Positions 19,781 to 32,000 of a stretch of DNA of 32,000 nucleotides are shown here, piece after piece. Made by a program: the position numbers and the translations under genes. Source of the DNA: Fastidiosibacter lacustris (GTDB taxonomy: Bacteria; Pseudomonadota; Gammaproteobacteria; Francisellales; Francisellaceae); the NCBI RefSeq assembly GCF_003428155.1, contig NZ_QLIR01000004.1, positions 30,001 to 62,000 on the forward strand, given 5' to 3'. The first letter of the stretch is position 1; each line of letters begins with the position of its first letter. The notes beneath the pieces are model-generated. The model searched no databases. It was not told where the DNA came from and saw only the letters and a list, made by a program, of their open reading frames with translations.

Positions 19781-19912
19781 AATTTACTCTCGACCAATCA
19801 CTTCAAATTATCCTTTCTCTTGTTAAGAGAGAAGTTCACAGAGTCTAGGTGGAAAAATTGGTTTTGAAAGTATAGTTGGGCATGGCACAAAGTTTTGGGT
19901 AATATTACCGTT

Positions 19913-21253
19913 TCATAAATATGAATATTTAATCTGACACTCAGTTATATTCCATTTGATATCTACTACCAACCCTCTTTTGTCAGGATGGTTATAAATT
20001 TCTAAGTGAGCATTATTATGCTCTACAATTTCTTTAACGATAGATAAACCTAAGCCAAATCCTGGTAAATTATGACTTCTTGCTTGATCCATACGAAAAA
20101 ATGGATCACATAGTTTCTCTATGAATTGTGGATCTACACCTGGTCCTTCATCTGTAAACCTTACACAAAGCACATTTTCGTTTGGTATCTTTGTTACTAT
20201 AACTGTTACACCATTTGCATACTTAATTGCATTGTCAATAAGGTTTTGAACAGCTCGCTTAAATGCTTTTCTTTGTAAAGGAAGTACGACAGAAGTAAAT
20301 TCAGACTCAAATTTAACGTTAAAAAAATTAATTTGATACTCATGACAAGTTGCATCGATAAAATTGACTAACTCAACAAGTTGAGTTTTTTCAATTTTAT
20401 GTGCCTTTTCATTGTACACATTCATTTGGTTAAGCAAATATTCCATATCCGCATAATATTTCAGTAATTCTTGATGATAGACTTCCGGAATAGAGTTTTG
20501 CATATAAAGTTTTGCTTTTGTCAGTGGAGTTTTTAAATCATGTGACAACGCTGCTAAAGTATGAACAGCTTCATCTAACATCGTTTGTACTTTATCACTT
20601 ACTTGTACCATAAGATCTGCTGTATCTTGCATAAAGAAAGGAGTAAATAGTGAATGTTTCTTTACTTTTAAACCTAAATTTTCAGCTAATTTTTGCATTT
20701 TGATATATGGTTTTAATAGCTTTTGAGTATAAGCAAAATAAATTGGAATCATGAAAGCGATAAATAATAATGAAACAACAAGTAGAAGATATAAGTAAAT
20801 TCTATTTGTGTTTTCAACAACAAAATCAACGCAAAAGTCTATATCTTGATAACAAATCGACACCCCATTTTTTCCATATCCATATTCTGACTTTGGTAAA
20901 AGTTCTTGTATCCTTTTACGAACTTCTCGATAAGTTTGTGACTTATAGCCTTGCTGTAGCTCAGCTATGTTAAGCATTAGTTTTTTACTAAATATACCAT
21001 TATCGGATAAATTATATTTTATGTAATCTGGCCAGGTATTAAGATATGATGATTGCTTATTTTCTGCATTAGGTAAGGCATTATAATGTAAATTGAATAC
21101 GGCATTCGTTAATGAATAAATCGTTTGAGAATATCTGTTATCGTAGTAGTTAAAATATGAAATAATAATAAAAGTCGCATTGAGCAATAAAAAAACAATA
21201 AATAACTTGGGGATAATCCAGAAGTAAATCTTTGTTTTAACTTTTATTTTCAT
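19913..21253 (-). CDS. Sensor histidine kinase (two TM helices flanking a ~120-aa periplasmic domain of unknown type)
   Basis: 446 aa. H-box LSHDLKTPLT, N-box NLIDNAIKYA, G-boxes DEGPGV and GFGLGLSIV. TM1 is IYFWIIPKLFIVFLLLNATFIIISYF and TM2 is IYLYLLLVVSLLFIAFMIPIYFAY. ATG 21253 overlaps the regulator gene stop by 17 nt (ATGAAAATAAAAGTTAA). Confidence 0.9.
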   Translation of the reverse strand: MKIKVKTKIYFWIIPKLFIVFLLLNATFIIISYFNYYDNRYSQTIYSLTNAVFNLHYNALPNAENKQSSYLNTWPDYIKYNLSDNGIFSKKLMLNIAELQQGYKSQTYREVRKRIQELLPKSEYGYGKNGVSICYQDIDFCVDFVVENTNRIYLYLLLVVSLLFIAFMIPIYFAYTQKLLKPYIKMQKLAENLGLKVKKHSLFTPFFMQDTADLMVQVSDKVQTMLDEAVHTLAALSHDLKTPLTKAKLYMQNSIPEVYHQELLKYYADMEYLLNQMNVYNEKAHKIEKTQLVELVNFIDATCHEYQINFFNVKFESEFTSVVLPLQRKAFKRAVQNLIDNAIKYANGVTVIVTKIPNENVLCVRFTDEGPGVDPQFIEKLCDPFFRMDQARSHNLPGFGLGLSIVKEIVEHNNAHLEIYNHPDKRGLVVDIKWNITECQIKYSYL

Positions 21254-22019
21254 CGTAGGTATTTTGCCTTAAAATTGTGTCTGAGTAATGCACATCAGCA
21301 ACCATAATATATCCAACTCCATGAATTGTTTTTATGATTTTGGGGTTAGCCGTGTCTTTTTCTACCTTTTTCCTGAGTCTACCAATAACAACGTCAACTG
21401 CGCGATCACAACCGTCATACTCACGATTATAAATTGCTCTTGTCACGTCATCCCGGGAAATAATATTTCGATTATTTTCTATTAGTATTTTAAGTAAGTC
21501 ATACTCAGAATTCGACAGTTCAATACTAATGCCATTTTGATCTATTAATACGCGGTCAAAGAAGTCTAAAACTAAATTTTCAAAGTGTATATATCTTTTG
21601 TTAGAAGCATCTTTATAGTCAACAGAATATGTTCTCAATGCGCTTTTAATTTGCGCAAGTAACACCTCTGCATTAAACGGCTTAGTAATATATTGACACG
21701 CTCCAAATTCATATGAAAGTATCTTTTTCGTATCGCTATCAATCGCTGTGAGCATTATGATTGGGATATTGTGTTGACTGCGAATTTGACGGCAGATATC
21801 AATTCCATTACCATCAGGCAACATTACATCAAGAATAATAATATCAGGTATTTTTTTTAATAAAATTGATAATGCTTCTGATAAACTCTTTGCTGTATCA
21901 ACAAGGTAGGCGTTGTTGATCAGTAAATTTTTTAATAACGTTATCATTTCATTATCATCATCAACTATAAGCACATTTTTTTTAGCAATTTTTGTTAACT
22001 CATTTAACTTATCTAGCAT
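21237..22019 (-). CDS. OmpR/PhoB-family response regulator (canonical receiver)
   Basis: The receiver has all phospho-chemistry residues: LIVDDDNE, IIILDVMLPDGNG, IIMLTA, YITKPF. The winged-helix output reads LSNSEYDLLKIL...ISRDD...DRAVDVVIGRLRKKVE...IKTIHGVGY. The start is set to ATG 22019, with a GAAGG SD-like element about 9 nt upstream. The track's TTG 22043 would add 8 residues. Confidence 0.92.
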   Translation of the reverse strand: MLDKLNELTKIAKKNVLIVDDDNEMITLLKNLLINNAYLVDTAKSLSEALSILLKKIPDIIILDVMLPDGNGIDICRQIRSQHNIPIIMLTAIDSDTKKILSYEFGACQYITKPFNAEVLLAQIKSALRTYSVDYKDASNKRYIHFENLVLDFFDRVLIDQNGISIELSNSEYDLLKILIENNRNIISRDDVTRAIYNREYDGCDRAVDVVIGRLRKKVEKDTANPKIIKTIHGVGYIMVADVHYSDTILRQNTYDENKS

Positions 22020-22340
22020 AGTAATTTGCCTTCTTTTTTCCAAATCTTATTTACATCTGATACCTATTGCAAATCGTTTTATGGGTTTTATAACACAGAA
22101 ATTTATACTGATTTTGAGCGAATTGAATTGCAAACGATAGTATTCCTCTTATCAAAATTTAATCGGTGAAAAACATATAAAACTCAATGTCAGCAAGTTT
22201 GCAAAATGATTCACAATATTTATATAACATATCTATGACAGCAAACTCAATATTGCTAGTCACTTTAATACAATTGGATACATATTAATAAATAATGCCA
22301 GAATAATTATTCTTGATGTTCTAATATTACATTCCCTAAC

Positions 22341-30705: not shown

Positions 30706-30712
30706 AAACAAT

Positions 30713-31393
30713 ATGAATAAGAAAATTAATTATAAGCTAAAGTGTTTTATTAGCTTCCCAGTACTTTTATGCACGGCTATGTTGCCTTATCAACTTGCTG
30801 TGGCAAATAAATTAGCAGTAGATGATCACTTTAAGCTGTTAAACCCTTATTGTATTTCAGATAAAGCTTGTGCTGATGCTGATCTTACGAAAACACATGG
30901 TATGGCTAAGATTTCTTCTGATGATGAATATAATGGTTTTGCACTCATTGTGGCTGACAATTTATTAGATCAGACGTTTTCTAGCAAACAGGTATATCAG
31001 ATTTTTAGCCAAGAAAACAATGATTATGCCATAAGTATTAATCTAGACGATAAAACAGTTGCGATTGCTAAAACACAAAAAGAAGCTGATTTACTAGCAA
31101 TGTGCCCAAGACAATTATTTTATGCCGAACAAGGGCAAACTTTAAAACAGACAGTTGAACGATGGGCCTCTTATCAAGGTATTAAAGTGATATGGGAAGC
31201 ATCTGTTGATTATAAGCTTGCCGCTTCGGCACAGTTTGAGGGACAACTGTTAGCAAAAAATGGAGCATTAAACAATTTGCTAAAAGCATTTGAAGATGCT
31301 GATCATCCACTGGAAGCACAGTTAAAGACAAATAACGTTTTGCTAATTAAAGCAAAATCATATTCTGCAAACATGGTCGTCATGCAAAAGTAG
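30713..31393 (+). CDS. TcpQ/PilL-like periplasmic pilus biogenesis protein
   Basis: The start is set to ATG 30713, 8 nt after the upstream stop. The track start 30629 overlaps the previous gene. Signal peptide MNKKINYKLKCFISFPVLLCTAMLPYQLAVA. The C-terminal block GQTLKQTVERWASYQGIKVIWEASVDYKLAASAQFEGQLL...LLKAF resembles the TcpQ-domain consensus as I recall it (G.tL...l..Wa...Gw.l.W....dy.l...a.f.G.f). Confidence 0.55.
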   Translation: MNKKINYKLKCFISFPVLLCTAMLPYQLAVANKLAVDDHFKLLNPYCISDKACADADLTKTHGMAKISSDDEYNGFALIVADNLLDQTFSSKQVYQIFSQENNDYAISINLDDKTVAIAKTQKEADLLAMCPRQLFYAEQGQTLKQTVERWASYQGIKVIWEASVDYKLAASAQFEGQLLAKNGALNNLLKAFEDADHPLEAQLKTNNVLLIKAKSYSANMVVMQK

Positions 31394-31408
31394 TTAAGGT
31401 TGTGGATA

Positions 31409-32000
31409 ATGAAAAACAATAAAAAGATATTACGTGTGTTGCTGTTGAGTAGCTTGATGCTATCGATGGCTGGTTGTAGCACTGCTATATATAAAACTGT
31501 TGATGAAAATGCAGATGCGAATATTGAGAAAACTAAGGCAATGATGTCAAACTTGAAAAAGCCAAAATCAGAGAGTTTTGTGACGATTAGTGATGAGCCT
31601 TACGTTCAAGGAGATTTAATTGATATTCAAGCACAAAACGCCTTGCCTGAAATATTTCAACGGTCATTTGCTTATAACAATACAGCAACAGGAGTAACAC
31701 TTGAAACGCTGATAGCAAAAATACAGCGAATTACTCAATCTAAGGTTGTTTTTTCGGAAGGTGCTATTGAGTATATTTCTCAGCGAGAACATCTAGCGAT
31801 GCCAGAGTCTGATATGCTAAAAAAAGAGCAGGTAGCGTATGAGATGTCGGATATTCATGATGTGATGATTCATTGTGACTATGATGGCAATATTGCCGGA
31901 TTTTTAGATTACTTTGCTTTTAAGCTTGGCATTTTTTGGAAGTATGATCAAAGTAGAAATACAGTTGAATTTTTTAGAATGGAAACAAAGACATTCCATG
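31409..32000 (+). CDS. Outer-membrane lipoprotein, probable type IVb secretin (TcpC/BfpB/PilN family), 3'-truncated by the window edge
   Basis: Not in the ORF track because it runs off the window. ATG 31409 opens a frame that stays open to nt 32000. My own translation is MKNNKKILRVLLLSSLMLSMAGC|STAIYK..., with the lipobox LSMAGC. Later comes GNIAGFLDYFAFKLGIFWKYDQSRNTVEFFRMETKTFH, the pattern typical of secretin N-terminal domains in the PilN/BfpB class. It immediately follows the TcpQ-like gene. Confidence 0.55.
   Translation, partial: MKNNKKILRVLLLSSLMLSMAGCSTAIYKTVDENADANIEKTKAMMSNLKKPKSESFVTISDEPYVQGDLIDIQAQNALPEIFQRSFAYNNTATGVTLETLIAKIQRITQSKVVFSEGAIEYISQREHLAMPESDMLKKEQVAYEMSDIHDVMIHCDYDGNIAGFLDYFAFKLGIFWKYDQSRNTVEFFRMETKTFH

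Follow-up and report, generated by a model that had tools for sequence, protein, structure and literature searches.

The stretch of DNA analysed here (hereafter, the window) comprises 32,000 nucleotides of the Fastidiosibacter lacustris type-strain genome (NCBI RefSeq assembly GCF_003428155.1, contig NZ_QLIR01000004.1, positions 30,001 to 62,000 of the forward strand) and contains a single tRNA gene, a tRNA-Glu(UUC) located with ARAGORN. To the left of the tRNA are genes whose Pfam labels (MiaB, PhoH/YbeZ, YbeY, CorC, and Lnt) agree with the miaB-ybeZ-ybeY-corC-lnt order read in a first-pass annotation of the window; to its right, as that annotation also described, are regulators, orphans, and surface- or secretion-associated genes, the first of which begins 132 nt past the tRNA (Table 1). 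Within the window, this accessory block consists of a two-component system, a lipoprotein, an orphan, a pentapeptide-repeat protein, and an atypical OmpR-like regulator (part A), followed by the beginning of an eight-gene operon for a type IVb pilus that resembles the bundle-forming pilus (BFP) and the toxin-coregulated pilus (TCP) (part B). Sequence beyond the window is that of the collinear contig JAMBMW010000006.1 of 'Candidatus Nebulobacter yamunensis' (GCA_024208055.1), which was followed to window-equivalent 59.2 kb, and which adds, on the opposite strand, two Trp-rich paralogues, a CS1-type chaperone-usher operon, and a 272-aa orphan (part C). This sister-strain contig is collinear with window positions 9914-31247 at 98.2% overall identity, and on it the block ends at murJ (window-equivalent ~49.6 kb), in keeping with the earlier expectation that the far boundary lies past 32 kb. 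From tRNA-Glu to murJ the block measures ~29.9 kb and contains no further tRNA genes; past murJ are an aminoacyl-tRNA synthetase gene, tRNA-Met-rimP-nusA-infB-rbfA, and atpI/atpB. Near-consecutive accessions (WP_116963569-...590) on one 126-kb contig support the same arrangement in the type strain. The 12 kb of the window to the right of the tRNA are, on balance, probably the start of a resident, non-mobile ~30-kb locus for adhesion or surface organelles and their regulation that extends from tRNA-Glu to murJ.

The major prepilin encoded at the front of the pilus operon has the attributes of a type IVb major pilin, namely a leader ending in Gly (MKKINTSAKQKG, preceding the mature N-terminus FSLIE), Glu5, and a type IVb globular domain. 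It matches the Pfam families N_methyl (37.7 bits), Bundlin (37.8 bits), and PilS (28.4 bits), all over their cut-offs, and its globular part matches bundlin (1zwt, E 1.6e-4). The second pilin-like protein gives a weak NCBIfam match to ComGE (E 0.025) and is named a FimT-family pilus assembly protein by NCBI; a single-sequence AlphaFold model of it was unusable (predicted local distance difference test score 44.6), and neither this minor pilin nor the 481-aa protein described below has relatives in sequence searches of the PDB. The TcpQ-domain protein that follows may serve as a secretin partner like TcpQ or BfpG, and the stop codon of its gene is situated 15 nt ahead of the start of the secretin gene, which runs off the window. 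In its full-length sister-strain form, the secretin matches Pfam Secretin (31.4 bits, cut-off 27.5) and has BfpB (9u5s) as its best PDB match (E 7e-40); its best NCBIfam match is to the PilN family (188 bits), under the equivalog cut-off of 287.65. Past the secretin, the sister strain encodes a 481-aa protein in the position of BfpC/PilO, a 163-aa PilP/BfpU-like protein (weak PilP match, 25.4 bits versus an equivalog cut-off of 34.65), a 542-aa BfpD-like ATPase (T2SSE 221.7 bits; best solved relative BfpD, 8dze, E 1.6e-48), and a 377-aa platform protein (T2SSF 22.9 bits, just under the cut-off of 25.2; ComGB E 1e-9). The genes for the ATPase and the platform protein lie past the window, and the type-strain copies are 99.8% and 100% identical, respectively. 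No retraction ATPase is encoded in the operon. If the pilus is assembled as are BFP and TCP, a prepilin peptidase encoded elsewhere would process the pilins, the ATPase and platform protein would polymerise them, and the filament would leave the cell via the TcpQ-assisted lipoprotein secretin. Two small features of the pilin gene are kept in the sister strain: three copies of an A-rich motif, AATAAACAACAAAAAA, directly upstream of the start codon (29086-29143), and a perfect 9-bp hairpin without a U-tail after the stop codon (29760-29786).

These domain assignments and the order of the genes place the pilus system as a predicted new, remote member of the type IVb class. With the BFP operon of enteropathogenic Escherichia coli it shares a Bundlin-domain pilin, a BfpB-like secretin, and a BfpD-like ATPase, as well as the order bfpA-G-B-C-U-D-E, which corresponds to pilin, small secretin partner, secretin, ~480-aa protein, ~160-aa protein, ATPase, and platform protein. 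It differs in that the major pilin gene is directly followed by that of a large second pilin, an arrangement shared with TCP and CFA/III, in that the locus is without the BfpF retraction ATPase, the BfpP prepilin peptidase, BfpH, and BfpI-L, and in that it is chromosomal, whereas the BFP operon resides on an EAF-type plasmid. A plasmid origin of the pilus genes was considered and rejected: in PLSDB neither the ATPase nor the secretin has a plasmid-borne relative above 35% identity, with plasmid PilN/secretin genes ~25% identical to the Fastidiosibacter secretin and any plasmid-borne ATPase at most 35%. The TCP of Vibrio cholerae and the CFA/III/Longus pili of enterotoxigenic E. coli (ETEC), with the order tcpA-B-Q-C-R-D-S-T-E, share the succession of pilin, large minor pilin, TcpQ, secretin, ATPase, and platform protein; they likewise have no retraction ATPase, and the TcpQ Pfam domain found here is over its cut-off. 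Automated annotation of both genomes names a TcpT-like ATPase (PMC9837558 supplement). In contrast to TCP, which is carried on the Vibrio pathogenicity island (VPI) with its integrase and att sites, the Fastidiosibacter block has neither; it also has no equivalents of TcpF, ToxT, and TcpJ, its minor pilin is without Glu5, its pilin leader is short (12 aa), and the mature pilin has Phe at +1. The thin pilus of R64/IncI1 and the PilL-V clusters of integrative and conjugative elements (PAPI-1, SPI-7) share an N-O-P-Q-R-like order from secretin to platform protein, but the Fastidiosibacter operon begins, rather than ends, with the pilin genes, PilM, PilT, PilU, and a PilV shufflon are missing, and the block has no conjugation genes, the related module in Cysteiniphilum being followed by Dot/Icm-like genes.

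Between the pilus and fimbrial operons are the two Trp-rich paralogues, of 629 aa (L087 17143-19032, minus strand) and 515 aa (L088 8137-9684, plus strand), which contain repeated G-x-x-W-L motifs and have no family assignment; the 515-aa protein has indels between the strains (97.1% identity), and Trp-rich homologues flank the pilus operon in Cysteiniphilum as well. The fimbrial operon, which lies outside the window and was seen in sister-strain DNA and in type-strain proteins, encodes a chaperone, a 168-aa subunit, an 825-aa usher, a 341-aa subunit, and two small subunits. The usher matches the TcfC E-set domain (67.6 bits, cut-off 29.4) and CooC_C (49.5 bits, cut-off 29), a combination that, judged from its sequence, is the signature of CS1/CFA-I-type alternate chaperone-usher fimbriae. 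The chaperone matches only PapD_N (E 0.008, 16.5 bits, under the cut-off), and the subunits have no Pfam match; a precomputed record for the Cysteiniphilum orthologue contains a weak Fimbrial_CS1 hit that our own Pfam scan did not reproduce. The CS1/CFA-I (class 5) fimbriae of ETEC and the Tcf fimbriae of Salmonella Typhi share the TcfC/CooC_C usher and an order as in cooB-A-C-D, and differ from the Fastidiosibacter system in that the subunits and chaperone of the latter are too diverged for Pfam and two extra small subunits are present. The pairing of a type IVb pilus with CS1-type fimbriae is otherwise familiar from enteric pathogens. The Fastidiosibacteraceae, a family related to Francisella, count among their members ciliate endosymbionts as well as emerging pathogens of humans and corals, and a full-text literature search found no paper naming type IV pili together with this family. 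The present analysis adds to it a predicted type IVb pilus, remotely BFP/TCP-like, in company with CS1-type fimbriae.

Comparison with related genera bears on how long the locus has been resident and on the significance of its neighbours. The next relatives of MiaB are those of Cysteiniphilum (91% identity), Facilibium (89%), and Fangia (88%). All three genera retain the five-gene miaB-lnt cassette, both of its flanks differ in each, and no tRNA adjoins miaB in any of them; among the matches listed for MiaB in distant taxa (at most 75% identity), no tRNA-Glu stands beside miaB in Legionella and others. A comparison of synteny at miaB, which the first-pass annotation had proposed as a check on an island, finds a conserved cassette but is uninformative about an island, since flanks that are rearranged in every genus leave synteny breaks with little weight. 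At the other end of the block, the Cysteiniphilum strain QT6929 retains the pair of aminoacyl-tRNA synthetase and murJ genes, followed by unrelated genes, with no tRNA within 10 kb. Both the miaB and the murJ neighbourhoods of Cysteiniphilum are without the block and also without the tRNA-Glu.

The pilus module itself is found elsewhere in that genus. A search of 5.8 billion proteins with the pilus ATPase retrieved only two close relatives (77-78% identity), all others being at most 38% identical, and one of the two is encoded in Cysteiniphilum assembly GCA_052030685.1, on a contig other than that of miaB. The order there is fimbrial subunits, a Trp-rich protein, the eight pilus genes, a 795-aa protein, and Dot/Icm-like genes, and no tRNA adjoins the module within the 21.6-kb locus. 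Between Fastidiosibacter and Cysteiniphilum, the pilus machinery is 81% (platform protein), 79% (secretin), and 78% (ATPase) identical; the TcpQ-domain protein and the pilin are each 61%, the minor pilin 51%, and the fimbrial subunits 39-45% identical. By way of comparison, core proteins give 91% for MiaB and YbeZ, 86% for the aminoacyl-tRNA synthetase, 82% for CorC, 72% for Lnt, 66% for MurJ, and 65% for YbeY. The machinery thus diverges like core proteins and the exposed parts faster, which fits long residence in the lineage accompanied by relocation. The locus would then predate the split between Fastidiosibacter and Cysteiniphilum and have been moved by the frequent rearrangements in the family, in which case its adjacency to tRNA-Glu is likely to be incidental or at most a fossil. 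In Cysteiniphilum (L090 12872-21635), the 795-aa protein, which has a weak ElaD/SseL-like match, is followed by DotH/IcmK- and DotG/TrbI-like type IVB secretion genes, and this juxtaposition of a pilus and a type IVB secretion system recalls IncI plasmids.

The first-pass annotation had proposed a candidate genomic island at the tRNA-Glu, tRNA 3' ends being classic sites of integration. The discrete accessory block is borne out by our analysis; integration of a mobile island at the tRNA is not. As that annotation had already observed for the window, there is no integrase, no repeat of the tRNA end, and no transfer gene in it. Across the whole ~29.9-kb block, none of the called genes carries a domain of an integrase, a transposase, or a transfer protein, including the sister-strain genes past the window, where an integrase had been suggested as an object of search. 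Genes in the window part are separated by no more than 582 nt, which leaves no room for a hidden integrase gene, with very short remnants conceivable. The 3' end of the tRNA-Glu gene (GGTTCGAATCCCCTTGGGGACGCCA, 19756-19780) occurs once in the window when up to 3 mismatches are allowed, and the suggested search for a downstream repeat of it found none with up to 4 mismatches per 25 nt across window-equivalent 9.9-59.2 kb. The two ends of the block have no word of 10 nt or more in common, and a repeat search around the block returned short AT-rich chance matches only. The block is present in both sequenced strains at ~99.7% identity, with no presence/absence polymorphism seen. Its dinucleotide relative-abundance distance to the pooled core is 51, inside the range of 50-65 for core versus core, and that of the pilus operon to the adjacent core is 37; the corresponding distances between a carboxylesterase gene to the left of the tRNA and all other segments are 92-116, so that this esterase, and not the post-tRNA region, is the only clearly foreign DNA in the window.

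A decayed island could nonetheless be envisaged, in which an integrase inserted the block at the tRNA-Glu 3' end and has since, along with the distal att site, been lost or become unrecognisable. The 3' end of the tRNA indeed faces the block at a distance of 132 nt, G+C and GC3 (G+C at third codon positions) are below those of both flanks, the content is purely accessory, and Cysteiniphilum synteny stops exactly at murJ. Tightness against a tRNA 3' end, a cargo of adhesins and regulators, and a G+C content below that of the flanks are also shared with tRNA-associated islands such as VPI, PAPI-1, and SPI-7, from which the Fastidiosibacter block differs in having no integrase, att repeat, or mobility genes, a native dinucleotide signature, and no polymorphism between the strains. 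Given the called genes without a recombinase domain and the narrow gaps between those in the window, the unrepeated tRNA end and the unrelated junctions, the native signature, and a pilus/fimbrial module that is core-like in its divergence from Cysteiniphilum and has no tRNA beside it in the 21.6-kb locus there, we consider a decayed tRNA-Glu island unlikely. A tRNA beside AT-rich accessory genes is insufficient for calling a mobile island when the hallmarks of one are absent across the complete block.

Base composition does drop past the tRNA, as had been claimed, by less than hand counts of two 60-nt lines implied. Both counts prove correct (26/60 G+C at 3541-3600, 15/60 at 20281-20340), the G+C content is 0.400 for positions 1-19704 versus 0.328 for 19781-32000, and GC3 decreases from 0.27-0.38 on the left to 0.22-0.31 on the right of tRNA-Glu. 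The left side, however, includes ribosomal-protein and rpoBC genes (G+C 0.41) and the carboxylesterase gene (52.5% G+C), which raise its value and thereby inflate the contrast. Measured against the adjoining core stretch (12500-19704, 0.367) and the genome mean of 36.3% (Table 1 of PMC9837558), the real deficit is 3-4 points. It is also patchy: the kinase, regulator, and orphan genes have G+C contents of 0.30-0.32, the pentapeptide protein gene 0.35, and the pilin genes 0.35-0.40, and block segments as a whole range over 0.32-0.355 versus 0.366-0.407 in core stretches. One could therefore see in the region ordinary within-genome G+C variation, with the tRNA a chance neighbour of ordinary chromosomal genes, and the G+C of the pilus operon (0.355) near the genome mean, the use of the unusually G+C-rich rpoB in the original contrast, and a signature distance inside the core range all point in this direction. 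That nothing distinguishes the region is nevertheless highly improbable in view of the universal genes that bound the block on both sides, the exclusively accessory functions over 30 kb, the absence of the block from the murJ and miaB neighbourhoods of Cysteiniphilum, and a GC3 that is consistently lower across more than 20 genes. In an AT-rich genome, the low G+C of a resident locus may stem from accessory proteins under weak constraint and at low expression, and not from recent import.

The genes of part A were considered separately. The 17-nt overlap of the kinase and response regulator genes indicates that they form an operon. The kinase and the 398-aa orphan are both 100% identical in the sister strain, and the pentapeptide-repeat protein is 99.3% identical. 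A full-length relative of the kinase in public data (P0403) is 63% identical, and a metagenome search with a kinase alignment returned generic kinases only, at most 31% identical over long alignments. The second OmpR-type regulator (27856-28572) has a degenerate receiver domain with Ser57 in the place of the phospho-acceptor Asp (DLLVVSS aligned to canonical DLVLLDW), and its gene is located 582 nt upstream of the pilin gene; we infer that it may regulate the pilus, and it is a candidate for a phosphorylation-independent regulator of this kind. Part A (19.8-29.1 kb) might alone be a later, lineage-specific addition, made by recombination without a site-specific integrase beside an older pilus/fimbrial module. 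It is the lowest in G+C (0.32; genes 0.30-0.35), it is missing upstream of the Cysteiniphilum pilin gene, where the gene for a Trp-rich protein and fimbrial genes are found instead, and three of its six genes are orphans without a family match. The 63%-identical kinase relative, however, indicates that part A is not unique to F. lacustris, its dinucleotide distance to two non-rpoBC core stretches is 62-64 (core range 50-65), though 87 to rpoBC, it is as conserved between the strains as the core, and the placement of the atypical regulator directly upstream of the pilin gene suggests functional linkage. We therefore regard such a mosaic origin as quite unlikely.

In both Facilibium (L082 6950-8655) and Fangia (L083 3785-5493), a PhoBR-like two-component system is found directly beside miaB, a resemblance to the window that could mislead a comparison of synteny. 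Conserved synteny of these genes was examined and dismissed: identity is 27-31%, the orientation is opposite, and the kinase is shorter. With identity this low, the response regulator in the window is not an orthologue of those in Fangia and Facilibium.

Several points weigh against a resident, non-mobile locus that extends from tRNA-Glu to murJ. The block directly abuts the 3' end of tRNA-Glu, its G+C content is 3-4 points under the genome mean, and the stretch closest to the tRNA is the lowest of all (0.30-0.32). In Cysteiniphilum, the pilus module was found without part A next to it. The species is represented by two strains only, a narrow basis for judging presence/absence polymorphism, and the sequence past 32 kb is that of the sister strain and not of the window strain. 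No prepilin peptidase for the predicted pilus is encoded among the genes of the block. An old transfer into the lineage is also possible and cannot be dated, there being no ATPase relative above 38% identity outside Fastidiosibacter and Cysteiniphilum.

The feature of the resident locus most worth attention is the exchange of pilin alleles between a free-living bacterium and its endosymbiotic twin. Giannotti et al. (2022, PMC9837558) describe 'Ca. Nebulobacter yamunensis' as obligately endosymbiotic in the ciliate Euplotes aediculatus; it has an average nucleotide identity of 99.38% to the free-living F. lacustris type strain, and the two genomes have been published as 'almost indistinguishable' (PMC9837558). 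Each 1-kb bin between 10 and 29 kb is 99.4-100% identical between the strains on either side of tRNA-Glu, followed by 85% identity in the 29-30 kb bin and 79% in the 30-31 kb bin, and 353 of the 410 differences in the 21.3 kb compared are located between 29083 and 30670. Within this interval are two sharp-edged cassettes, one in each pilin gene (Table 1), that are ~25-35% diverged at the DNA level. Synonymous divergence (dS) outside the cassettes is 0-0.07; pilin codons 1-45 have a dS of 0.07 and a nonsynonymous divergence (dN) of 0, and minor-pilin codons 1-74 and 269-278, the pilin N-terminus, and the 180-nt intergenic region are identical or nearly so. Synonymous divergence in the cassettes is at least ten-fold that of flanking codons in the same genes, and the cassettes are therefore best explained as old alleles introduced by homologous recombination, not as products of recent point mutation. 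Recombination anchored in the conserved N-terminal segments may thus have swapped the exposed domains of both pilins between lineages. The dN/dS ratio in the cassettes (0.19-0.50) is alone no demonstration of positive selection.

At the protein level, the major pilins of the two strains are 69% and the minor pilins 65.5% identical, whereas the 14 other block proteins compared are 97-100% identical; no gene of the region other than the two pilin genes is strongly diverged between the strains. In the variable part, both pilin alleles stand at 51% to the Cysteiniphilum pilin and at 59% to each other. The published supplement (PMC9837558) gives a further TcpT-like ATPase gene, tcpT_2, as a pseudogene of both strains. 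It may be the trace of another type IVb cluster, now decayed, in a different part of the genome, which could have donated pilin alleles.

A further difference affects the fimbrial operon. In the endosymbiont, codon 52 of the chaperone gene is an in-frame stop (TGG to TGA; L088 1610-1612, window-equivalent ~48.1 kb), and the type-strain chaperone is intact (262/282 aa). Recoding of UGA to Trp was considered as an explanation and judged unlikely, because TGA terminates 3 of the 38 local genes checked. The 168-aa fimbrial major subunit of the sister strain (L088 2505-3011) is the sole member of its 90%-identity cluster, and its type-strain counterpart is, from this clustering, probably a diverged allele too.

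The published genome comparison offers no candidate cause for the differing lifestyles of the two strains, and its main text makes no mention of pili, fimbriae, adhesins, or recombination (PMC9837558). The swapped exposed domains of both pilins may be among a few concentrated, potentially high-effect differences between the strains and could govern attachment, uptake, or persistence in the ciliate; we give this only a slim chance of being correct. In such a reading, the chaperone nonsense mutation and the fimbrial major subunit, with its probable divergence, would belong with the pilin swap. The sequence facts of the strain differences are solid, and their causal link to lifestyle is speculative. 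If the link holds, the pilin alleles and the fimbrial chaperone are concrete candidates for the difference between a cultivable bacterium and an obligate endosymbiont.

Table 1. Features at the tRNA-Glu boundary and in the window part of the accessory block (window coordinates).
Feature	Position	Strand	Remarks
Near-consensus sigma-70-type promoter-like site, TTGACA-17-TAGAAT	19629..19657	+	Upstream of tRNA-Glu; 11/12 consensus positions; putative, consensus match only
tRNA-Glu(UUC)	19705..19780	+	Left edge of accessory block; 3' end faces block
Sensor histidine kinase, 446 aa	19913..21253	-	G+C 0.296; Pfam HATPase_c 72 bits, weak HisKA match; NCBI: HAMP-domain sensor histidine kinase
OmpR-family response regulator, 260 aa by NCBI call	21237..22019	-	Open reading frame reaches 22043; Pfam Response_reg 94 bits, Trans_reg_C 79 bits
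Putative lipoprotein, 112 aa, orphan	22341..22679	-	Signal peptide with Cys lipobox; no Pfam or PHROG family
Orphan protein, 398 aa	22956..24152	+	401 aa from GTG 22947; no Pfam, NCBIfam, or PHROG match
Pentapeptide-repeat protein, 1063 aa	24241..27432	+	Hydrophobic C-terminal region; Pfam Pentapeptide 117 bits, Pentapeptide_4 89 bits
Atypical OmpR/PhoB-type regulator, 238 aa	27856..28572	+	Trans_reg_C 62.8 bits; Response_reg 21.7 bits, under 30.2 cut-off
Type IVb major prepilin, 177 aa	29155..29688	+	Leader MKKINTSAKQKG, then FSLIE at mature N-terminus
Variable cassette 1, major pilin codons 46-177	29290..29700	+	Sharp edges; dS 1.41, dN 0.27
Second pilin-like (minor pilin) protein, 278 aa	29869..30705	+	TcpB/CofB position; pilin-type hydrophobic N-terminus after ...KEQG; no Glu at +5
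Variable cassette 2, minor-pilin codons 75-268	30091..30670	+	Sharp edges; dS 0.74, dN 0.37
TcpQ-domain protein, 226 aa	30713..31393	+	Signal peptide; PF10671 TcpQ 62.6 bits, cut-off 27; NCBI: TcpQ domain-containing protein
Lipoprotein secretin (BfpB/PilN/TcpC class), 5' part	31409..32000	+	538 aa in full, runs off window; translation shows MKNNKKILRVLLLSSLMLSMAGC; lipobox MAGC

In composition, only the carboxylesterase gene (10862-12499, plus strand) stands far apart from the rest of the window, with a G+C content of 52.5% and a GC3 of 0.57. It encodes a type-B enzyme, matched best among solved structures by p-nitrobenzyl esterase (1c7i, E 4e-69), is situated between rpoC and an HlyIII-family gene, and is found in both strains. 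This gene is probably a separate, recent horizontal acquisition.

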